This document shows positions 5,452 to 57,244 of a stretch of 64,000 bases of DNA, one piece after another. Position numbers and translations under genes: made by a program. Within the stretch, counting starts at the first letter, position 1; the number at the start of each line of letters is the position of its first letter. The stretch is from the NCBI GenBank assembly GCA_039197885.1, contig JBCCTY010000001.1:1088-65087 (forward strand). Direction: 5' to 3'. The notes below the pieces were generated by a model. The model did not search any database and was not told where the DNA came from. It saw only the letters and a list, made by a program, of their open reading frames with translations. Origin of the DNA: Actinomycetota bacterium. GTDB lineage: Bacteria > Actinomycetota > Acidimicrobiia > Acidimicrobiales > Poriferisodalaceae.

Positions 5452-7134
<1,683 letters not shown>

Positions 7135-34052: not shown

Positions 34053-34375
34053 TCGTCGTCACCCCGGCTGCCGGCGGCCAGCCGGAGCCCGATGAGGGTG
34101 CCGACGTTCTCGGCGTTCGCTGCGAGCACCAGCAACAGCCCACCGACGAGCAGCCCGAGCGCCGGTGCGACCAGCCACCCCGCCGCGGCGACCATTACCG
34201 CACCGGCCTTCTCGGCCAGCTGACGCCCCACCGACCGCCACGGCACCGCCAGCGCAACTGCGACCACACTGGCGAGGACCGCTCGCGCAACCCGCTCCGG
34301 GACCATCGACACCCACAGGAGAGCGGCGGTCGTTGAGTTCGAGGCCGAGCGCGCCGGCCGAAGGATGCTCACCAC
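34049..34375 (-). CDS. small membrane protein between TerL and portal
   Basis: 108 aa with three hydrophobic segments, overlapping both neighbours. Confidence 0.45.
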   Translation of the reverse strand: MVSILRPARSASNSTTAALLWVSMVPERVARAVLASVVAVALAVPWRSVGRQLAEKAGAVMVAAAGWLVAPALGLLVGGLLLVLAANAENVGTLIGLRLAAGSRGDDE

Positions 34376-36012
34376 AGGTTCGGCTCCTTCGAGTCGGTCG
34401 GCATGCCGGCGCCGGCAGCGATGGCGTCGCGCCGGGCCTCATGGGCGAGCACGGCGCAGACGTGCAGGTCGATCTTGCGGCCGTCGTCGGGCTTGCCGAT
34501 CGTCCACCCGCGGGTGTCGGTATCGATCCAGGTCTTCGATGGCCGGCGGTCGGCAGCCAGGATGTGCGAGCGGAGCAACGGGTCCCCGTCGTGCACGATC
34601 GACGGCGGACTCTCCTCGGTCCCACCGAGGTCGACCCAGAAGGCGTAGACCGCCAGGGTCATCTTGCGGTCCTGGATCGTGTGGAACGGCTTCACGACCT
34701 TCTCTCCGTAGGCGGCCTGCCAGTCGGCGATCTCGGAGTCCCAGCCCGGCGGATCCGGGTACATCGCCACCACCCGGTAGCGGCGGAACGCCTCGGCCAC
34801 GGCGTCGTGGACCTCGCGGCGGGGGATCTCGCTGTAAGGCCCGGTCACGCCGGGCTCCCAGTACCCGAGCACCTTCGTGTAGCCGTCGGAGAGCCGAGCA
34901 GCCACCAAGCCGGTGCCGTCCCGGAACCGCGAGCCGTCGAAGCCCAGAGCGATCGCCTCGCCCGGACGGAGACCGGCCTCGCCGAGACGTGCATCGCGAG
35001 CGGCGTCCCACCGGTCCACTCCGACGGCCTTGCGGTCGCTGGAGCGGCGCCAGTTCAGCCACACCCGCGCCCAATAGGTCCGGTCCGTCTTCGGGTCGTC
35101 GTAGCGGCGGGCGATGCCCCACAGGTCCGACCAATCCAGGCCCGAGTCGAAGTCGAGACCCGAGGCCTCCTCCAGCGCGGCGACGCGCTGCTCCGGGTCG
35201 TCGAGGTCGTAGTGCTCACTCGCCGAGAGCTCGATGAACAACCGATCGGTGTCGACCCGCTCGTTCGCGATGTCGTCGTCGACCGCGAGCATGATCTCCT
35301 CGAGCAACGAACCCTCGCCGGGCTCGAACTCGGTGGAGGTGATGAACGACCAGGCGTCGTTCGCGGCGACCTTGTAGAGGTTCTCCGACATCGTGTCGTA
35401 CGCCTGGATGTGACGATGCGTCGTCATCCGGTGCGGCTCGTCGAAGTGCTGGAACGTCGTCAGCGCACCATCACGAGCACCAGGCGAACCGGCCATCGCC
35501 CGGATCAGGCCGCCGCCGTCGGCTCGAGTGATGCGCTCCTCGCCCACGCTGTAGACGGCGCCGAGCGGGCAGGCATCGGACCGGAGCATGGACTGCAGCG
35601 TGCTGAACGCCAGTTCCTCGGACTGCTCCGAGGTGAAAGCGATCATCGGGATGTACGGCGACCGCAGCCCGGCACCGATCGGCTGGCCGTCCTCGTCCCA
35701 GCCAACGCAGCGCACCGGGGCTTCCGGATCGGCCTCCATTGCCGTGATCCCCGAGGCCGCCTCGGTCTTCGCCGTCCCCTTGCGGAGGACGACCACGACT
35801 TCCTTCCAGCGGCGACGACCCGCCTGCGGGTGGCTCTGCGGCCAGACCTCGTAGGCCCGCACCATGATCGCCTGCCACAGCTTCGCCAGCCGCAGCGGTT
35901 CGTCTTGCTGCGGCCCGGGGCCGTGCACCAGGTTGGCGTGCATCCGCCGGATCAACTGCGGACCCAGCGACGGCAGCGGCTCAGCCGGCGCCGGCGGCCA
36001 CGACCGGATCAC
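34369..36012 (-). CDS. terminase large subunit
   Basis: 547 aa. GTGA overlap with the TerS stop. Called from size and position in HNH-TerS-TerL-portal order. Confidence 0.8.
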   Translation of the reverse strand: MIRSWPPAPAEPLPSLGPQLIRRMHANLVHGPGPQQDEPLRLAKLWQAIMVRAYEVWPQSHPQAGRRRWKEVVVVLRKGTAKTEAASGITAMEADPEAPVRCVGWDEDGQPIGAGLRSPYIPMIAFTSEQSEELAFSTLQSMLRSDACPLGAVYSVGEERITRADGGGLIRAMAGSPGARDGALTTFQHFDEPHRMTTHRHIQAYDTMSENLYKVAANDAWSFITSTEFEPGEGSLLEEIMLAVDDDIANERVDTDRLFIELSASEHYDLDDPEQRVAALEEASGLDFDSGLDWSDLWGIARRYDDPKTDRTYWARVWLNWRRSSDRKAVGVDRWDAARDARLGEAGLRPGEAIALGFDGSRFRDGTGLVAARLSDGYTKVLGYWEPGVTGPYSEIPRREVHDAVAEAFRRYRVVAMYPDPPGWDSEIADWQAAYGEKVVKPFHTIQDRKMTLAVYAFWVDLGGTEESPPSIVHDGDPLLRSHILAADRRPSKTWIDTDTRGWTIGKPDDGRKIDLHVCAVLAHEARRDAIAAGAGMPTDSKEPNLW

Positions 36013-36482
36013 GCCGTCTCGGCGCCGCCGTTGATCACACTGAAGATCGGGTGATCGACCTCGACGACGTCCTGGGCATCCGACTGCCGCGCGGCCTGTG
36101 CCTTCGGCGACGGCGACGCCGCCCCGGTCGCCCGGATCCGCAGCGCCATCCGATCAGCGACCGTCGCGCCCAAGCGCTGGCCGGCGAGGCGGAGCTCCGA
36201 CGCCAGCTCCTTTGGGTGCCCCTCGCGCTGGAAGCGCTCCATCAGCGGCAGCATCACGCCCTCGAGGTAGGCCCAGTCGGTGTCGTCGTAGAGCGTCGCC
36301 ATCGACGACGACGTCATCGCCCGCCACCACGACTTCGTGGCCTTGTGCCAGCCGCCACGCTGGCCCTTCTTCGGGATCCCGCGAAGCTGCTTGCCCGGCG
36401 CTGCGGGGAGCTCCGTCCACGGAGCCTGACCACCCGAACGGCGCGCTCGGTTCGGATCGGGAGCGGGACCACGACCAGCCAT
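36009..36482 (-). CDS. terminase small subunit
   Basis: ATG 36482 after GAGGAGG. N-terminus MAGRGPAPDPNRARR is typical of P27-type small terminases. Confidence 0.7.
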   Translation of the reverse strand: MAGRGPAPDPNRARRSGGQAPWTELPAAPGKQLRGIPKKGQRGGWHKATKSWWRAMTSSSMATLYDDTDWAYLEGVMLPLMERFQREGHPKELASELRLAGQRLGATVADRMALRIRATGAASPSPKAQAARQSDAQDVVEVDHPIFSVINGGAETA

Positions 36483-36514
36483 CGAGCACCTCCTCAAGAC
36501 GCGAGACTCGCTCC

Positions 36515-36883: not shown

Positions 36884-37324
36884 CTACTCCAGGTCGACCG
36901 GCAGTGAGCGATCGGCGAGCTTGAAGTGATCACGGACCAGCACGAGGTACTCACGTCGGGCCTGGACGCGCTCTGGTCGCGGCTTCTGGGCGCTGACGGC
37001 GCCGACCATCTCTCGGGCTGCGTTGATCATCGGTTTCGGTAGGAGCATCTCGGCTCGCGCGTACGCCTCGAAGACTCGGTCCACTCGCTCCATCGCACCC
37101 GTGGGTTGATCGAAGCTCATGTGCAGCAGGTAGACGGCTCTGGCCAGCTCGTCTGCCGCCTCAAACTGCTCAGAGCGGATGCGTTCGTAGTCCTCCCGAG
37201 CCGCCCTGCGTCGCTCCCGCCTGATCTCGAACCACTGAGCCAGTGCGGTGGCGGTAACGGTGATGAGCGCTCCGGCGATCCCGAACAGGCCGGCGATCGC
37301 TACGTCCGAGAGCGCGAGGGTCAC
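36884..37324 (-). CDS. hypothetical protein with N-terminal TM and helical cytoplasmic domain
   Basis: 146 aa. GTGA overlap with the HNH stop. N-terminal segment VAIAGLFGIAGALITVTATALA. Confidence 0.55.
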   Translation of the reverse strand: MTLALSDVAIAGLFGIAGALITVTATALAQWFEIRRERRRAAREDYERIRSEQFEAADELARAVYLLHMSFDQPTGAMERVDRVFEAYARAEMLLPKPMINAAREMVGAVSAQKPRPERVQARREYLVLVRDHFKLADRSLPVDLE

Positions 37325-37716
37325 TGGCTCAGCCTCTCACGCTCGGCTCGCCTCACCGCGCCCTGCCTGCTGTTCTCGCTGCGGCAGAGCACCCGCCGTC
37401 CGATCACCACGCCGCCGGTGTCTTGGAGCGGTGGCACGTGGTCGCTGGTGAGCTGGCCGGGTGCAACGGGGTGGGGCTGGTGTCCGGTCTCGGGTGCGCC
37501 GGGGCACCACCACCCGTGGGTCTCGACGTGCTCGGCGATGAGGCGCTCGGCTGCTCGGCGCTCGGCGTTGGTGGCTCGGACTCGGGCGCCGGGGTCGTCG
37601 GCTCGGTGCGAGCGGGCGGGCACGTGCTGGTGCTTGGGGCACGGTGCGGGGAGGGGGCAGGCGGCGACTGGGCAGCGGCTCATTGGACGCACATCTCGAA
37701 CCCGTAGCGACACCAT
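37321..37716 (-). CDS. HNH endonuclease (packaging-associated)
   Basis: Cys/His-rich with TSDHVPPLQDTGG...LCRSENSRQG (H-N-N type). Lies upstream of the terminase genes. Confidence 0.7.
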   Translation of the reverse strand: MVSLRVRDVRPMSRCPVAACPLPAPCPKHQHVPARSHRADDPGARVRATNAERRAAERLIAEHVETHGWWCPGAPETGHQPHPVAPGQLTSDHVPPLQDTGGVVIGRRVLCRSENSRQGAVRRAERERLSQ

Positions 37717-37936: not shown

Positions 37937-38646
37937 GATGCCTCCCGGTGGTGGACCTTGGGCCACTTGCCTCGGTCTCGGTGGTGTTGGAGCTCGGCGA
38001 TCGACGGGGCCCGCAGGTGCCTCGACGCGAACGTGTGGCAGCTCTTGCACACTGGGATCCGGGGCGGCTCTTCGCCTGCGTCAGCGACGAGCGGGCCGGC
38101 GTTGCGGTCCCCGATCCTCGGCTCGTCGCCCTCGCGCATGACCTGGCCGTGCCAGCGGCAGGCGGGCCGCCACTTGGTGCCGTCCCACACCGTGTCGGTG
38201 CCTTCCTTGCCGGTGGTCTCGGCTTCGACCGTGGCGGTGACCTTCAGGATCGCGAACCGCAGGCGCCTGGTCGCGGCCTCGGCCTCCTCGGCGGCTTCGA
38301 GGATCTCGCGCTCGAGCTGACGGCTGTGCTGTCGTCGGGATCGTCGACCCTCGACGCGTGCGACTGCACCTGCCTCGACGGAAGTGAGTGGCACGGTGAC
38401 CTTCCGGTCGGGGTGCTCGGGATCGTCGATCTCGGCGCCGCCACCTCCGCGACCGGTGCCGTCGAGGTTGGGCGAGCGAAGGCCGTCATCAGCGTCGTCG
38501 ACATCGGGGTCGTCGAGCAGCGTCAGCGCGAGCTCGAGGCGGGACATCTTCGGTCGGCCGGACACCTTCACCTCGTCGCTGACGTGGAGCATGTCGCGGC
38601 GCGCCTGGTCAACGACGCCGGGAAGCCGGCCTCGGGGGATGCTCAT
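37933..38646 (-). CDS. hypothetical replication-module protein with C-terminal Cys/His cluster
   Basis: 237 aa. ATGA overlap with the DUF3987 stop. Acidic N-terminal half, with CRWHG...CKSCH in the C-terminal half. Confidence 0.5.
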   Translation of the reverse strand: MSIPRGRLPGVVDQARRDMLHVSDEVKVSGRPKMSRLELALTLLDDPDVDDADDGLRSPNLDGTGRGGGGAEIDDPEHPDRKVTVPLTSVEAGAVARVEGRRSRRQHSRQLEREILEAAEEAEAATRRLRFAILKVTATVEAETTGKEGTDTVWDGTKWRPACRWHGQVMREGDEPRIGDRNAGPLVADAGEEPPRIPVCKSCHTFASRHLRAPSIAELQHHRDRGKWPKVHHREAS

Positions 38647-40391
38647 GCTGCGTCTCCTGGGTCGGGGTCGGGTAGGGCGTTGGCGCCGGCGATGAGCTCG
38701 TCGAGGAGTTCGTCGTTGGCGACGACGTGCAGCGAACGGTCGTTCGGTTGGCGCGCATGGCGCGCAGATCCAGGTTCAGGGGCAGAGGGAGTGCTCAGGG
38801 AAGGAGGAGGAGGAACGCGCGAACCTTTAGTGACATGCGCGCCATGCGCGCCACCTTCGTCGACGCTGAGTGGTTCTGACCCGTTTCCGTGGTCAAGGTG
38901 GCGCGCATGGCACAAGGTGGCGCGCAGGTCGGGGTGGCACTCGAACTCGTTCCTCTGGCCTCGCTTCGGGGTCCGCCAGTTGGGCCGGAGGGGCCTGACG
39001 AGGTCTCGCTCGACGAGTCGGGCGACGAGGTCGAGGAGTTCCTCGGCGGTGTCACGGGACCGCCGGAAGCGGCCACCACGGTTGATGTCCCGAGTCGTGA
39101 AGATCGGGTTGTCGTGCTCGTTCACGAGCCAGTCGATGAGGTCCTGGGCTTCAGCCATCTCGGGGCTCAGGTCGCCGTAGGCGGCGACGGCGTGCCCGAG
39201 CCACCACTCGCCGACGGCTTCGGCGCGACGGTAGGTGTGGATGTCGACGTCGTCGTTGGGGGTGAAGCCGTCGGCGACGTGGAGGATGAGGGCGAGGCGG
39301 AGCACGGAGCTGGTGACCTTCTCGGGGATCCCGGCGAGGGGGCTCAGGGGGCCGTCGGCGCCTCGTCGTGCTTCGAGGGTGTTCCGCCAGGCGTTGAACG
39401 CGTTGTAGGCGTCGGTGGCGAGCCGGTAGGTGATGTCGTCGGTGCGGCCCCATGGGTGGGTGCGGGTGATCTCGGTGAGGTGCTCGGTCCACTGGTGGGC
39501 GGCGACGGGGTCGAGGGGGTCGATGGTGGTGTAGTCCCGCTGGCCGACGAGGGAGGGCGGCACGGCGATCATGAACCGGTCGGAGAGCCCGCGGCCGGTG
39601 AAGTCGGGGTCGGCCTTGATGAGGGACTCGACGATGCGGGGCTGCGGGGTGAGGAGCATGGTGGCTCGGGCCCGTCGGATCTGGGCTGAGCGGGAGAGGC
39701 GGCTGACCTTCACGTCGCCGCCGGACCAGGCTTGGAGGAGGGTCTGGATGTTGGCGGAGCGTCCGGTCTCGACGAGGCGGCTCACGGTGTCGAGCACGCC
39801 GGCTTCGTCGGAGAGCACGGCGACGGTGCCGCGGTTGGCGGCGAGGGCCTTCTCGAGGCTCTCGGTGTTGGTGTCGTCGAGGATCGGCTCTGGTTCGTCG
39901 GGGAGGGCGGCGTCGTCGAGGGCTTCGAGCGCGGCGATGAGCTCGTCGGTGTTGCCGCTCATCTCGGCGTCCTTCACGGCGAGCTCGGCGACCTTGCGGT
40001 GGGCGAGCGCGTGGCGGGCGGCGTCTTCGTGCTGGCGCTTCCACTGGTCGGCGAGGTCGTCGAGAGGGGCGGTGAGCGCGTTAAACACGGGGCTCTTGCC
40101 GCTCCCCGGTGGCATGGCGCAGACGAGGTAGAGGTTCGCTGCTTCGGTCCAGCCGTCGGTGACGGTGAGGGTGGCGCGGCCGTGGGTGAGCGCAGCGGAC
40201 AGGGTCCCCAGGGCGACGGTGACGGGCAGCTCGACGGGTACCCGCATGTGGGCGGCCAGGTTGTCGCACCGGGCCTGGATCCAGTGGGGGAGCACCCCTC
40301 GGGGGAACTCGGGGGCTGGTGGGGCGACGGGGAGCGGTACGGGCGGGTCCCAGGGGTCGCCGGCTCGTTGCTCGATGTCGTCGATGCTCAC
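38643..40391 (-). CDS. DUF3987-type replication protein (primase-associated helicase-like)
   Basis: 582 aa with a P-loop-like PPGSGKSPV and overall resemblance to YfjI/DUF3987 phage/plasmid replication proteins. The family call is by eye. Confidence 0.6.
   Translation of the reverse strand: MSIDDIEQRAGDPWDPPVPLPVAPPAPEFPRGVLPHWIQARCDNLAAHMRVPVELPVTVALGTLSAALTHGRATLTVTDGWTEAANLYLVCAMPPGSGKSPVFNALTAPLDDLADQWKRQHEDAARHALAHRKVAELAVKDAEMSGNTDELIAALEALDDAALPDEPEPILDDTNTESLEKALAANRGTVAVLSDEAGVLDTVSRLVETGRSANIQTLLQAWSGGDVKVSRLSRSAQIRRARATMLLTPQPRIVESLIKADPDFTGRGLSDRFMIAVPPSLVGQRDYTTIDPLDPVAAHQWTEHLTEITRTHPWGRTDDITYRLATDAYNAFNAWRNTLEARRGADGPLSPLAGIPEKVTSSVLRLALILHVADGFTPNDDVDIHTYRRAEAVGEWWLGHAVAAYGDLSPEMAEAQDLIDWLVNEHDNPIFTTRDINRGGRFRRSRDTAEELLDLVARLVERDLVRPLRPNWRTPKRGQRNEFECHPDLRATLCHARHLDHGNGSEPLSVDEGGAHGAHVTKGSRVPPPPSLSTPSAPEPGSARHARQPNDRSLHVVANDELLDELIAGANALPDPDPGDAA
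38748..38930. repeat. iteron cluster: six GGCGCGCA copies in three pairs (candidate ori) inside the DUF3987 gene 3' end
   Basis: Plus-strand copies at 38750, 38759, 38900 and 38919; minus-strand copies at 38836-43 and 38845-52. The 13-mer AAGGTGGCGCGCA occurs three times. A purine tract lies at 38798-38815. Confidence 0.6.
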
Positions 40392-40414
40392 CAGACGCCG
40401 ATCGTCGTGGAAAA

Positions 40415-40463
40415 GCGGCGTCGTCTATTGACTTCGATTATGCGGCGTCGGATAATGGCTTCA
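40415..40463 (+). promoter_or_regulatory. sigma-70-like promoter TTGACT-17-GATAAT with ATG 7 nt after the -10 (leaderless), bracketed by GCGGCGTCG direct repeats
   Basis: -35 at 40428-33, -10 at 40451-56, ATG at 40463. 9-mer repeats at 40415-23 and 40442-50. Confidence 0.6.
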
Positions 40464-40678
40464 TGAACGCCACGCAGATCTCGGCCACCAGCGACCGTAT
40501 CCGCCACAACGTCGACGTCATCCGCTCGACCGAGTGGTCCGACGGGCACCCCGTCGAAGAGGACGACCTCGTCCCTGGGCGCATGGCTGCCATCGGTGGG
40601 TTCTCGCTTCCCGACGAGTGCCGAGGCGGCTCCACCGACGACGTGATGCGCCTCCTGGAGTCCTGGGGCGCGTCGTGA
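40463..40678 (+). CDS. small acidic hypothetical protein (plus-strand cassette, gene 1)
   Basis: 71 aa with high GC3. Its stop overlaps the next start (GTGA). Confidence 0.5.
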   Translation: MNATQISATSDRIRHNVDVIRSTEWSDGHPVEEDDLVPGRMAAIGGFSLPDECRGGSTDDVMRLLESWGAS

Positions 40679-40830
40679 GCCAGGGCCGTGGCCGACCGGC
40701 CGTGGGTCCTCGGGTCGCGGTGCGACTGCCAGTCGACGTGCTGGCTGAGGTCGATGCGTGGGCCGAGCAGCACGACTCGACGCGTGCCGAGGTGCTCCGG
40801 CAGATCGTGACCGACTGGGCGCGGCAGTAG
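40675..40830 (+). CDS. ribbon-helix-helix (CopG/Arc-like) protein (plus-strand cassette, gene 2)
   Basis: 51 aa. RVAVRLPVDVLAEVDAWAEQHDSTRAEVLRQIV fits a strand-helix-helix pattern. Confidence 0.55.
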   Translation: MSQGRGRPAVGPRVAVRLPVDVLAEVDAWAEQHDSTRAEVLRQIVTDWARQ

Positions 40831-40834
40831 CCAT

Positions 40835-41494
40835 CTAGGCCGCCTCTCGCTGCGCCCGGATCGTGGCGTGGAGCTGGCGGCCGAGGAACTCGGTGTAGAC
40901 CGGTGGGATGGCCTGCGACAGGGTTTCGAGGGGCAGCCAGTCGATCTCCATGCCGATGCGCTGCCGAGCGATGGGGATCCGGTAGACACCGACCTCGATG
41001 GTGCGGCGGAGGTTGGTGCGGTTCGTGGCCGGCGGGAACCGCGGCGTCTGCCACCCGTGACTGCAGGGAGGAGCGACGAGGCGGACGTTGCTCTCGAAGA
41101 GGCGATGGCGACGGACATCGAGGCCGAAGCTCGAGCCACAGAGCCGCACGGGGTCCACGAGGTGTGCTGCGGCCTGCTCGACGTTCTCGATGATCCAGGG
41201 CAGTCCGGTGGCCTCGAGCAGCTCGCGGGTCTGAGGGATCAGGTTCAGGGCGCCGTCACCGACGCCGTGACCCTTCCGGCGGTAGGCGGTGGCGAACTGG
41301 CACGGCGGGGATGCGTGGACAGCGTCAAACCCGTCGGCGATCAGGCCCGGGAACTGCTCCAGGGCGTCGGCCTTGACGAACTCGAATGGGTAGTCGGGCT
41401 GGTCGTGGAGGTCGATGCCGACGACGTCAAAGCCGGCGCGGTGGTAGCCCATGGCGGCGCCACCGCCGCCGCAGAACAGGTCGAGGAGCCTCAT
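40835..41494 (-). CDS. compact DNA (cytosine-5)-methyltransferase
   Basis: DLFCGGGG (motif I), SPPCQ (IV), ENV (VI), RRHRLF (VIII), QAIPP (X). About 219 aa from ATG 41494. Confidence 0.85.
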   Translation of the reverse strand: MRLLDLFCGGGGAAMGYHRAGFDVVGIDLHDQPDYPFEFVKADALEQFPGLIADGFDAVHASPPCQFATAYRRKGHGVGDGALNLIPQTRELLEATGLPWIIENVEQAAAHLVDPVRLCGSSFGLDVRRHRLFESNVRLVAPPCSHGWQTPRFPPATNRTNLRRTIEVGVYRIPIARQRIGMEIDWLPLETLSQAIPPVYTEFLGRQLHATIRAQREAA

Positions 41495-41509
41495 CGCACA
41501 CCTGCGATG
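41492..41509. promoter_or_regulatory. palindrome CATCGCA-CACC-TGCGATG covering the C5-MTase start codon
   Basis: Perfect 7-bp arms, and the ATG (41494-41492) lies in one arm. Confidence 0.35.
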
Positions 41510-41558
41510 TCGCACCCCTTCGCTTCCCTCTCGAACACCTGTTCCCTACGGTTGGGGG

Positions 41559-50784: not shown

Positions 50785-51045
50785 ATGCATATGAGCGCAG
50801 GGAGTGACGTACTAGAGGCGATGAAGCGGCTGAGTGGTCACACGGATGTGTCCATCTCGGAGGCGACGGGCATCCATCGCGACCGACTTCAGCGAATCCG
50901 GCGCGGACGGAGCTCCGTGACAGCCGACGACATCGTCGTCCTGTCCGAGTTCTTCAACGTCGAGCCTGCGAGCTTCTTCATGCAGGTAGAGGAGGCCGTG
51001 GGCCACTTCATGGAGAGGAACCAGGTGATCAGCGCATCTAGATGA
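50785..51045 (+). CDS. XRE/cI-like HTH repressor
   Basis: SISEATGIHRDRLQRIRRGRSSVTADDIVVLSEFFNV. Alternative starts at 50791 and 50821. Confidence 0.7.
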   Translation: MHMSAGSDVLEAMKRLSGHTDVSISEATGIHRDRLQRIRRGRSSVTADDIVVLSEFFNVEPASFFMQVEEAVGHFMERNQVISASR

Positions 51046-54882: not shown

Positions 54883-55533
54883 TCAGAGCTCGAGGCCGGT
54901 GATGTCGGCGAGCTCGGCGCGGGCGTCGTCGGGGTCGACCACCTTGATGGTCCGCATGCCCATGGCGCGCGCCGGCTTCAGGTTGATGCCGAGGTCGTCG
55001 AGGTAGACGACGTCCTCGGCCGCGCAACCGGCCGCCTCCAGCGCGAGCTCGTAGAACCGGCGCTCGGGCTTGCGCACGCCCACGATGCTCGATTCGACGA
55101 TCACGTGGAACAACCCCATCACCTCGTCGATGGCTGCGGCACGCTCTGCCGTCGTCGCCATGCCCGGTCCCTCGCCCGCGCGGACGTTGTTCGTGACGCA
55201 CACGCACCGCAGCTCCGCTCGGCACCGGCGCAGCGCCTCGACCATCTCCGGGCGGAGGTCACCGGAGAGGCAGTCGAGCACCCGTCGTCCGCTGACCTCG
55301 TGACCGAGCGCAGCGGCCTCCGCCTCGAACGCGACGACGAACTCGTCGACGGTCAGCTCGCTGCGCTCGAGACCGGCCCACGCGTTCGTGTCGGGGTCGG
55401 TCGCGTTGATCGTCCGGATGAGATCGACGGGCAGCCCGGCCTCGGTCTCGTAGCGACGGAAGGCCTCGAACGGGCTCGTCGTCACGACGCCTCCGAAGTC
55501 CCAGAACACGGTGGTGGGTCGCGGTCGCGTCAT
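54883..55533 (-). CDS. HAD-superfamily hydrolase
   Basis: Motif I FWDFGGVV, and C-terminal VYLDDLGINLKPA (motif IV context). Confidence 0.7.
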   Translation of the reverse strand: MTRPRPTTVFWDFGGVVTTSPFEAFRRYETEAGLPVDLIRTINATDPDTNAWAGLERSELTVDEFVVAFEAEAAALGHEVSGRRVLDCLSGDLRPEMVEALRRCRAELRCVCVTNNVRAGEGPGMATTAERAAAIDEVMGLFHVIVESSIVGVRKPERRFYELALEAAGCAAEDVVYLDDLGINLKPARAMGMRTIKVVDPDDARAELADITGLEL

Positions 55534-55636
55534 GGCGCGCAGGGTAGGTGGCGCGCTGGTCGCCGCCCCAGATGCAGCGGTGACTCGGTGGTATCCGTTG
55601 CACGCAACGCAGCACGTGGTTCACTTGACACCCGTC

Positions 55637-57244
55637 ATGGTCTCTCACGTCGTCGTCGACGGATCGAACCTCGCCACCGAGGGGCGCAAGGTCCCGAGCC
55701 TCGCCCAGCTGCGCGACGCCGTCGCCGAGTTCCGGGCCGAGTTCGCCCCCGAGCAGTGCACCGTGATCGTCGACGCCACCTTCCCCAACCGGATCGATCC
55801 GAGCGAGGCCGACGACTACCAGCGCGCCATCGACGAGAACGAGTTGCTGACCCCGCCAGCCGGAGCGGTCGGGCGCGGCGACGCCTTCGTGCTGCAGATC
55901 GCCGACAAGGCCGACGCAGTCGTCCTCTCGAACGACTCGTTCCAGGAGTTCCACGGTGAGTACCGCTGGCTCTTCGCCGACGAGCGCTTGATCGGTGGCA
56001 AGCCGGTACCCGGCGTCGGCTGGGTCTTCGTCGAGCGAACGCCGGTCCGTGGGCCCCGCAGCCGTCGCGCCGTGCGCGAGGCCAAGGAGAAGGGCGCCAA
56101 GCAGTCGGAGCCGACGAGCCGCGCGCCGGCCAGGAAGAAGAAGTCGTCGGCCAAGAAGGCAGCGGCAGAGCGATCGGCAGCTTCGACGGCCGGGAGCGAC
56201 GAGGGCGACCAGCCCCGCCGTCGTCGTCGGTCGCGTCGCAAGCAGGCCGCTCCCGAGGTCGAGGCCGAGTCGAGCCCAGCCGCGGAGGATGCGGTCGAGC
56301 CGGACGGCGCCGAGGCCGCCGACGACGGGGCCTCGTCGGGCTCGGGCACGCGTCGCCGACGCCGTCGCCGTCGGTCGACCACGCGCACCGACGGCGCGGC
56401 CGACGTCGACACCGACGCCAGCGGCACCGATGCCGAGGCCGACGCCAGCGGTGGCCGCTCGGGCGGCAGGCGCCGGAGCGCGAAGAGCGAGCCGCTCAAC
56501 GAGGTGTTGCCCTTCCTCGAGTTCGCCGGCGCGAACCCGCCGGGCGCCGAGGTCGACGGCGTGGTGGAGCGCTTCTCGTCGCACGGTGCCTACGTGCTGG
56601 TCGACGCGGTGCTCTGCTACATCCCGCTGAAGTCGATGGGCGACCCACCGCCGAACCGGGCCCGCGACCTGTTGACCAAGGGCGAGACGCAGCGGTTCGT
56701 CGTCGACAGCGTCGACGCCCCGAACCGCGGCGTCGACCTCGCTCTGCCCGGCTTCCGTCAATCCGACGACGGACCGGACGACCTTGATCTGGACGAGCCC
56801 GACGACGGTGACGTCGTCGACTCGTCCTCCTCGACCCCTGACACTGGGAGCACAGCAACGATGGCAGCAAAGAAGAAGGCGTCGGCCAAGAAGGCCGCCA
56901 CCAAGAAGAAGGCCGCCGCCAAGAAGGCGCCGGCGAAGAAGAAGGTGGCAGCGAAGAAGGCCCCGGCCAAGAAGAAGGTCGCGGCGAAGAAGAAGGTCGC
57001 CGCGAAGAAGGCGCCGGCGAAGAAGAAGGTGGCAGCGAAGAAGGCCCCGGCGAAGAAGAAGACCGCAGCGAAGAAGGCCACCTCGAAGAAGAAGGCCGCC
57101 ACCAAGCGGGCCCCGGCCAAGAAGAAGGCCCCGGCGAAGAAGAAGACCGCTGCGAAGAAGGCCCCGGCGAAGAAGAAGACCGCCGCCAAGAAGGCGCCGG
57201 CGAAGAAGAAGGCGGCAGCGAAAAAGCGCTCCGCTCGCCGCTGA
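55637..57244 (+). CDS. NYN/Zc3h12a-like RNase domain - S1-like domain - Lys/Ala/Pro histone-H1-like tail protein
   Basis: VVVDGSNLATEG...VLSNDSFQEF (NYN-like), EVDGVVERFSSHGAYVLVD (S1-like), and a ~125-aa AKKAPAKKK repeat tail. Confidence 0.65.
   Translation: MVSHVVVDGSNLATEGRKVPSLAQLRDAVAEFRAEFAPEQCTVIVDATFPNRIDPSEADDYQRAIDENELLTPPAGAVGRGDAFVLQIADKADAVVLSNDSFQEFHGEYRWLFADERLIGGKPVPGVGWVFVERTPVRGPRSRRAVREAKEKGAKQSEPTSRAPARKKKSSAKKAAAERSAASTAGSDEGDQPRRRRRSRRKQAAPEVEAESSPAAEDAVEPDGAEAADDGASSGSGTRRRRRRRRSTTRTDGAADVDTDASGTDAEADASGGRSGGRRRSAKSEPLNEVLPFLEFAGANPPGAEVDGVVERFSSHGAYVLVDAVLCYIPLKSMGDPPPNRARDLLTKGETQRFVVDSVDAPNRGVDLALPGFRQSDDGPDDLDLDEPDDGDVVDSSSSTPDTGSTATMAAKKKASAKKAATKKKAAAKKAPAKKKVAAKKAPAKKKVAAKKKVAAKKAPAKKKVAAKKAPAKKKTAAKKATSKKKAATKRAPAKKKAPAKKKTAAKKAPAKKKTAAKKAPAKKKAAAKKRSARR
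56861..57228 (+). repeat. coding low-complexity tandem repeat (A-K-K-A-P-A-K-K-K-x-A units)
   Basis: Read from the translation and from recurring gccaagaagaaggc/gcgaagaagaag strings. Confidence 0.8.

Follow-up and report, generated by a model that had tools for sequence, protein, structure and literature searches.

The helicase gene and its repeat cluster

The window analysed here is a stretch of 64,000 nt (C1:1088-65087) from a 4.25 Mb actinobacterial assembly of 437 contigs. Its minus strand carries, at 38643..40391, a gene for a 582-aa helicase of the DUF3987 family (Pfam DUF3987 over aa 51-406, E 5e-67; phrog_2373, DNA helicase). The 3' end of this gene contains a cluster of short repeats, which an initial annotation had singled out as a candidate origin of phage replication of the iteron type. 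All six repeat units lie within the helicase open reading frame (ORF), 104-284 nt upstream of its stop codon, in or at the edge of the codons for aa 489-548. The stop codon itself overlaps the start codon of a 237-aa ORF, in the form ATGA.

Six exact copies of the 9-mer TGGCGCGCA, which is the repeat unit, are found within 38749-38926, laid out as a direct pair, then an inverted pair, then a direct pair. The cluster had been described as six copies of the 8-mer GGCGCGCA arranged in three pairs (38750 and 38759 on the plus strand, 38836 and 38845 on the minus strand, 38900 and 38919 on the plus strand); all of these positions and orientations are correct, the 8-mer being the core of the true unit. 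Pair 1 (38749..38766, plus strand) consists of two abutting exact 9-mers TGGCGCGCA in 9-bp phasing, which on the gene strand read twice TGCGCGCCA and encode S-ARHAR-Q. Pair 2 (38836..38857, minus strand) is made of abutting inverted 9-mers (38836-44 and 38845-53), together with an AAGGT flank that the last three units of the cluster have in common, and encodes GAHGAH. Pair 3 (38895..38926, plus strand) consists of two copies of the 13-mer AAGGTGGCGCGCA 19 nt apart, with the units at 38899-907 and 38918-926; identical 14-mers of this pair are read in two frames on the gene strand, as LRATL and as HARHL. The three occurrences reported for the 13-mer (38895 and 38914 on the plus strand, 38845-57 on the minus strand) were recovered, and it is absent from the rest of the genome. 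The pairs also form two perfect inverted repeats, one of 18 nt (38749-66 / 38836-53), whose 18-mer is confined to the locus genome-wide, and one of 17 nt (38841-57 / 38895-911). The tail peptides listed earlier (CHARH, AHGAH, ARHAR and PPPP) are all present.

The two spacers are the low-GC segments of the region. The spacer of 69 nt that separates the convergent pairs 1 and 2 (38767..38835) holds a purine run, which had been correctly placed between the pairs but is 19 nt long (38797-38815) and not 18; it is the longest in the window. The locally AT-rich stretch that had been pointed out is there as well, the lowest-GC windows of 30-40 nt being found at 38797-38836 (GC 0.53-0.55, about the 1st percentile of the window). 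This spacer is a candidate DNA-melting segment. The 37-nt spacer between the divergent pairs 2 and 3 (38858..38894) is the second low-GC segment, with a GC of 0.53 over 30 nt.

Counts over the whole assembly establish that the local enrichment is real. The 8-mer occurs 414 times in the genome (0.097 per kb), which gives an expectation of 0.017 copies for 177 bp; the Poisson chance of the cluster, estimated from these counts, is about 4e-14 for a stretch of this size. In none of the other 200-bp stretches does the 8-mer occur more than twice. Of the 12 copies in the 64-kb window, six are inside 38750-38926. Clusters of k-mers are common in this high-GC genome and are mostly tandem coding repeats: about 55 places have at least six copies of some 8-mer, five of them being found when at least six copies of any 8-mer are required in mixed orientation within 220 nt. 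Of the latter, two besides the cluster described here were inspected, and both were rejected as further origins since they are long tandem repeats: C69:1600-1751, where a 49-bp unit containing a CCAGGCGCCTG palindrome is repeated just downstream of a gene resembling ligA, and C143:1729-1873, where a repeat of 39-51 nt (…STSEVGLAPTQFA…) belongs to the coding sequence for the tail of an AraC-like protein. Within the 64-kb window there is no second cluster of the unit, which occurs outside 38749-38926 at the chance rate with one mismatch allowed, and no other mixed-orientation cluster of non-trivial k-mers was found. A different kind of repeat lies at 56985-57206, where eleven CGAAGAAG and eight AAGAAGGC occur within 220 nt, inside the plus-strand ORF 55511-57244; it is probably a lysine/glutamate-rich coding tandem repeat of a host gene.

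The composition of the gene changes in the repeat zone. The G+C content at third codon positions (GC3) is 0.92 for aa 1-480, 0.61 for aa 481-550 and 0.78 for the last 32 codons, and the remaining two frames of the gene strand are interrupted by stop codons over the repeat zone. Since the other frames carry stops and GC3 drops, the repeat zone appears to be translated, with its codon usage overridden. The repeats are constrained as DNA and not as protein, because identical 14-mers are read in different frames, two of the six units are inverted and GC3 falls to 0.61.

An AlphaFold2 model built on eight homologues (pLDDT, the predicted local distance difference test, of 72) places these features on the protein. 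A winged helix-turn-helix with a highly basic wing (LRPNWRTPKRGQR) is predicted at aa 410-487, and wing residue R477 is invariant in the eight homologues. Its coding DNA, delimited from the secondary structure of the model, is at 38931..39164 (minus strand) and ends 5 nt from unit 6. Residues 495-564 are disordered in the model (pLDDT about 30) and correspond to the repeat zone, the DNA coding for this linker (38700..38909, minus strand) overlapping units 1-5 and both spacers. A short acidic C-terminal segment follows (…DELLDELIAGANALPDPDPGDAA, 38646..38699, minus strand), which the closest relative conserves and which has counterparts in the other homologues whose frame reads through the repeats. 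When the model was submitted to Foldseek, the best matches in the PDB were MCM2-7 and archaeal MCM (E 6e-6). This predicted MCM-like fold agrees with the classification of DUF3987 proteins as phage superfamily 6 (SF6) helicases, distantly related to MCM and with a winged helix-turn-helix at the C-terminus (Kazlauskas et al. 2016, PMC4889955). A PriCT-DUF3987 protein has been characterised as an ATP-dependent helicase (PMC11724360). A profile of the eight homologues gave no chain at E <= 0.1 against PDB sequences, and thus none of the solved Rep or Cch proteins, although Rep2 may not be in the PDB.

Repeat clusters in homologous loci

To place the cluster in its family, 13 distinct homologous loci were collected, the window included, and scanned for clusters (any canonical 8-mer, at least four copies in 220 nt), with a general search for repeats as a supplement. 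Repeat clusters of mixed orientation were found at the same place in nine of the 13, some inside an extended ORF and some just past the stop codon. For the window and four other loci (L009, L012, L018 and L020), the unbiased k-mer scan returned a single mixed-orientation cluster in the whole locus, and that cluster is at the 3' end of the DUF3987 gene. Because clusters with two units in each orientation occur about once per 29 kb in this genome, nine of 13 loci matching the same 300-nt target is far beyond chance.

The unit sequences vary from locus to locus while the layout recurs, with abutting units, often in 9-bp phasing, in opposite orientations. Units TGCGCGACA are found in L009, CACAACCAT in L018 (6283-6437; gene end 6517) and CGCGTGCAA in L020 (6184-6298, plus a degenerate copy at 6421; gene end 6411). 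In L012 the unit GCCCCACG is intergenic, past the stop codon. The repeat search added L011, with a 38-nt inverted repeat of unit GAGTTGCGCGT (1605-1731; gene end 1835), and L016, with ATTCGCGC units (5961-6096; gene end 6131). The last two, L022 (from a Streptomyces genome, 5039-5212) and L024 (5026-5200), are more distant DnaB_N-DUF3987 genes in integrase-bearing integrative islands of the Streptomyces type; in both, the CGTCAGCA units number five to seven, lie in mixed orientation with partial 9-bp phasing, and begin 1-2 nt past the helicase stop codon. An 86-aa gene called over the CGTCAGCA units of L022 is probably spurious. The 9-bp phasing is seen in the window, L009, L018, L020 and L022, and partially in L012 and L024. 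In the homologues as in the window, the GC3 minimum and the AT-richest 30-mers of the locus are located between inverted units; the low-GC core was measured in the window, L011, L016, L018 and L020.

The closest relative, L009, whose helicase has 55% amino-acid identity to the window protein, allows a base-by-base comparison. The order is again direct, inverted, direct, and TGCGCGACA stands where the window has TGCGCGCCA, with A for C in every unit (T for G in the inverted ones) and an extra G in one unit. Nucleotide identity between the two loci is 31/36 in the well-aligned units, against 23/60 in the spacers and 54/109 in the DNA coding for the winged helix-turn-helix. This makes the units the most strongly conserved part of the entire 3' end, and the single difference between the two loci is concerted, which is the pattern that would be expected of binding sites co-evolving with their reader. 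The peptide ARHAR is also conserved in L009. That locus, a Logan contig of SRR060545, has its helicase gene split by a frameshift just before the iterons (1247-1284); this is either a sequencing error or a genuine pseudogene, and the tail can be aligned in the second frame. Together with the clusters found at the equivalent place elsewhere, the comparison bears out, as far as sequences go, both a conservation of the motifs beyond codon needs and the proposal of an iteron-type candidate origin in the 3' end of the DUF3987 gene.

The proteins fall into two types according to where the repeats are. Those with intergenic repeats (L012, L022, L024) or without repeats (L019, L023) end 10-15 residues past the last strand of the winged helix, which a '(V)HP' motif marks. 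Those with repeats inside the ORF (the window, L011, L016, L018, L020) have an extension of 90-110 residues over the repeats, with an acidic tip and often a terminal aromatic or hydrophobic residue. In the loci compared, the element therefore keeps a constant place with respect to the point where the DNA coding for the winged helix ends, and the ORF is either closed ahead of it or continues across it. Translation of the read-through is probable on three grounds: five or six independent loci have the frame open, in the window it is coupled to the next gene, and its C-terminal part is conserved as protein between the window and L009. The extensions of L011, L016 and L018 end in …DPDDDGNLW, …DPDPNLPDLF and …ETPPWL, and that of the window in …PDPDPGDAA; such acidic tips are reminiscent of the C-terminal tips by which SSB docks partner proteins.

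Close relatives are rare. No relative was detected at the DNA level in the phage collection or in 40 related genomes, and pattern scans with the single protein returned none from the genome and viral contigs. The alignment of eight sequences was too divergent for pattern scans; an alignment of two sequences retrieved L012, a single locus from a metagenome, with no match among the viral or the genome contigs. Searching phage records by tblastn gave matches only at 26% identity or less, and 300 genomes of the same order contained two distant matches.

A candidate replication origin and its alternatives

The best precedent for such an arrangement is found in the staphylococcal pathogenicity islands (SaPIs). 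Their Rep protein (of superfamily 3, SF3, or SF6/MCM-like in the case of Rep2) is both helicase and initiator and needs no loader; its C-terminal winged helix binds 6-12 iterons immediately downstream of rep, where an AT-rich region is flanked on either side by two or more iterons in opposite orientation (PMC9371898). According to a preprint on PriRep5 of SaPI5, reading of the iteron by the wing is through the major groove, successive C-terminal domains of one hexamer bind iterons that are 7 nt + 2 nt apart, i.e. 9 bp, and the AT-rich stretch between inverted iterons is an initial melting point (10.64898/2026.10.17.759575). Together with the uniqueness of the cluster, its constraint as DNA, the domain layout of the protein and the recurrence in homologues, this leads us to consider that the six 9-bp units probably constitute the replication origin of the prophage, an origin of the SaPI type, of which the initiator would be a helicase that loads itself, and which the ORF overprints as gene O does the lambda origin. 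We infer that the winged helix would bind the units and that melting and origin activity would take place there.

The likely reader of the repeats is the helicase's own predicted C-terminal winged helix. The 237-aa neighbour, which had been put forward as another possible binder, was rejected as a constant binding partner since it has no homologue in any related locus. The genes downstream vary too: a WhiB and an HNH_3 protein in L011, uncharacterised proteins in L018 and an HTH_17 protein in L022. As the 237-aa ORF is not conserved and the downstream genes differ, the helicase gene is the sole constant partner of the repeats.

A possible sequence of events is as follows. The SF6, MCM-like DUF3987 protein would assemble as a ring, and its flexible C-terminal winged-helix domains would dock onto the 9-bp-phased units. 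Rings or half-complexes would form on pairs of opposite orientation. Melting would begin in the spacers that separate inverted units and are low in GC and rich in purines; the helicase would then load itself and unwind. The origin would sit at a fixed place, directly after the DNA coding for the winged helix, and in this clade the reading frame would continue through it, so that origin DNA would also encode the disordered linker tethering the acidic C-terminal tip.

Several points weigh against this interpretation. The low-GC spacers still have 53-55% GC. The only characterised DUF3987 helicase unwinds 5'-3' (PMC11724360), whereas SaPI Reps and MCM proceed 3'-5' (PMC9371898); a transfer of the SaPI mechanism is therefore not guaranteed, and the details of loading may differ. 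Four of the 13 loci (L010, L014, L019 and L023) showed no cluster at the thresholds of the scan. No primase or polymerase was identified among the early genes scanned, several ORFs of which have no family match. The concerted C/A change of L009, lastly, also keeps hairpin pairing and so fails by itself to separate protein sites from a nucleic-acid structure.

Among the alternatives, the one that survives best is that the units bind the winged helix of the helicase, or another phage factor, for the purpose of control (autoregulation, handcuffing and copy control, or a late/packaging switch), with the origin elsewhere; we regard it as unlikely, though worth keeping in mind. Iterons of plasmids, in the textbook view, commonly double as autoregulatory and handcuffing sites, the cluster stands at the boundary between the replication genes and those leading to terS and terL, and the ATGA that couples the helicase gene to the next one is 100 nt downstream of the cluster. 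A promoter or a terminator at the repeats was nevertheless rejected, no promoter-like or terminator-like site having been found in 38300-39300, and the 64-kb window offers no other iteron-like cluster as an alternative origin. Moreover, the repeats stay with the helicase gene while the genes downstream differ among the homologous loci, and inverted pairs around a low-GC core are the layout of SaPI origins.

A structure in RNA or single-stranded DNA, with alternative hairpins in the helicase mRNA tuning translation, stability or coupling to the next gene, is a good deal less probable. The mRNA strand does fold better than its shuffles (z = -3.76, with 0/200 shuffles as stable), and the middle arm can pair either with the upstream arm (18 bp) or with the downstream arm (17 bp), the two being mutually exclusive; the pairing retained in spite of the concerted change in L009 goes in the same direction. 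However, each arm duplicates the 9-mer exactly and in tandem, for which there is no need in a stem. In four loci the long stems are all Watson-Crick, without any G-U (18/18 and 17/17 in the window, 20/20 and 17/17 in L009, 17/17 and 15/15 in L018, 23/23 in L020), which is the signature of identical DNA sites; L018 has an additional pair of 30-nt arms at 90%. The numbers of direct and inverted units also vary among loci, and in L012, L022 and L024 the element lies past the stop codon and is untranslated. A known RNA family was rejected, as no Rfam covariance model matched (three sub-threshold chance matches, E 0.16-0.72).

It is very improbable that the cluster is a packaging signal (pac, or a cos accessory site) for the small terminase. 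It is some 2.2 kb upstream of terS (36009-36497, minus strand), in the same direction of transcription, and terminase sites can be short repeat arrays according to textbooks; but packaging sites are normally in or beside terS, and the cluster keeps its place at the end of the DNA coding for the winged helix even in loci that lack a terminase in the vicinity, as in the integrase-bearing islands L022 and L024. Least credible of all is that a low-complexity repeat due to chance or to the protein lies here in a disordered tail, without any function as DNA: coding k-mer clusters are indeed many in high-GC genomes (the 55 or so places mentioned above) and ARHAR is conserved as a peptide in L009, but the units occur in two frames and both orientations, the codon bias is abnormal (GC3 0.61), the units are better conserved than the adjacent domain-coding DNA, and distant homologues have the same layout, made of units of unrelated sequence.

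Genomic setting and relation to known origins

The element that carries the candidate origin is a tailed prophage in a high-GC genome. Genes called on the basis of GC3 form a long run on the minus strand from about 8.4 to 50.8 kb, and a host 2-oxoglutarate dehydrogenase gene comes after it, at 51042. Besides terS, the run holds terL (34369-36012, minus strand), a C5 methyltransferase (40835-41515, minus strand), an exonuclease, a RuvC-like resolvase, an N6/N4 methylase and a DUF5131 protein. A 131-aa ORF (37321-37716, minus strand) had earlier been labelled a packaging HNH endonuclease; the label is not used here, the ORF having no match in Pfam, PHROGs or NCBIfam. The helicase, the 237-aa neighbour and the methyltransferase are likewise without a match in NCBIfam. 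Between the methyltransferase and helicase genes is a 148-aa ORF (40388-40834, minus strand), rich in Arg, Pro and Ala and without family match, which may be a shadow frame; about 450 nt directly upstream of the helicase start would then be unassigned.

The C5 methyltransferase gene is located just upstream of the helicase gene in the window, and likewise in the distantly homologous L016 (1335-2984) and L020 (1771-3198). A GCGC/CGCG core is seen in five of the seven iteron types of the phage clade (TGCGCGCCA, TGCGCGACA, TTGCGCGT, TTCGCGC and CGCGTGCA). The origin units could conceivably be methylated; for the methyltransferase no relative was found in the PDB by sequence, so that its target site could not be deduced.

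Comparison with known systems indicates, by analogy, that the closest mechanistic model is the Rep-ori module of SaPIs and of phage-inducible chromosomal islands (PICIs), as represented by Rep1, Rep2/SaPIbov1 Rep and PriRep5. Of the parallel with lambda that had been drawn at the outset, the in-gene placement holds, whereas the mechanism would be nearer to that of the islands. In both the islands and the prophage, a ring helicase is found beside the origin (AAA+ there, helicase-family here by Pfam, PHROGs and predicted fold), with a C-terminal winged helix (here predicted, with its basic wing, at aa 410-487) and, at the 3' end of the gene, short iterons (6-12 there, six here) in opposite orientation around a core of lower GC, with 9-bp phasing (among the islands, in SaPI5); SaPI Rep2 is in addition SF6/MCM-like, as DUF3987 is. 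The differences are that the iterons of the islands are downstream of the stop codon and those of the window inside the ORF (L012, L022 and L024 having the downstream layout), that the window units are 9 bp long and GC-rich around a core which is AT-rich only in relative terms (53-55% GC in a genome of 70% GC), that no similarity in sequence could be detected between the window protein and the solved Reps or Cch, and that the replicon is a full tailed prophage of a high-GC actinobacterium and not a satellite.

The iterons of the lambda origin lie within gene O, in the segment for the flexible linker between the DNA-binding domain and the C-terminal, partner-binding part. They are four 19-bp units with internal symmetry, all direct, adjoined by an AT-richer stretch with purine/pyrimidine strand asymmetry. 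The O protein is not a helicase and recruits the host DnaB through P. The window shares with lambda the iterons inside the linker-coding segment of the (putative) initiator, the AT-richer, purine-asymmetric stretch and a transcription that necessarily passes through the origin; it differs by mixed-orientation 9-mers and by a protein that is itself a helicase-family ATPase, unrelated to O. The alpha protein of phage P4, an SF3 helicase-primase, also has a C-terminal winged-helix origin-binding domain and 8-bp repeats in both orientations. There, the origin is outside the alpha gene and a second cis site, crr, is required kilobases away, whereas the candidate origin of the window is in-gene and no second cluster like crr exists in the 64-kb window. 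Among actinobacterial replicons, the Streptomyces linear plasmids pSLA2/pSCL reportedly have a 'phage-like' origin with iterons inside rep1 and a helicase-like partner (Chang, Kim and Cohen are said to have described it in 1996); the likeness would be in the type of replicon and the in-gene iterons, the proteins and the repeat layout being different.

An origin within a coding sequence is thus of a kind already known, and what the window would add, in all likelihood, is a variant, judged by the same analogy: an origin of the SaPI type overprinted by the ORF of its helicase. A more far-reaching idea can be put forward only tentatively, as it is rather improbable. In one actinobacterial phage clade, the MCM-like helicase gene would be read through its own origin, and the same 180 bp would serve as origin and as a disordered tether with an acidic, partner-binding tip, the sequence of the linker being dictated by the origin. 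Transcription and translation, origin occupancy and possibly cytosine methylation would then be coupled in cis and act as a licensing or copy-control switch.

The origins of actinobacterial phages and of phages with DUF3987/MCM-like helicases are essentially unmapped, and the DUF3987 literature searched makes no mention of origins. For building vectors for actinobacteria, a candidate minimal replicon would be the helicase gene together with the putative origin inside it. If the interpretation as an origin is true, the locus would be a clear example from nature of dual coding, codon usage giving way to origin DNA, and it would provide a rule for locating origins, namely directly after the DNA coding for the winged helix of the helicase. 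The model of the self-loading helicase would then extend from staphylococcal satellites to the tailed phages of high-GC bacteria.

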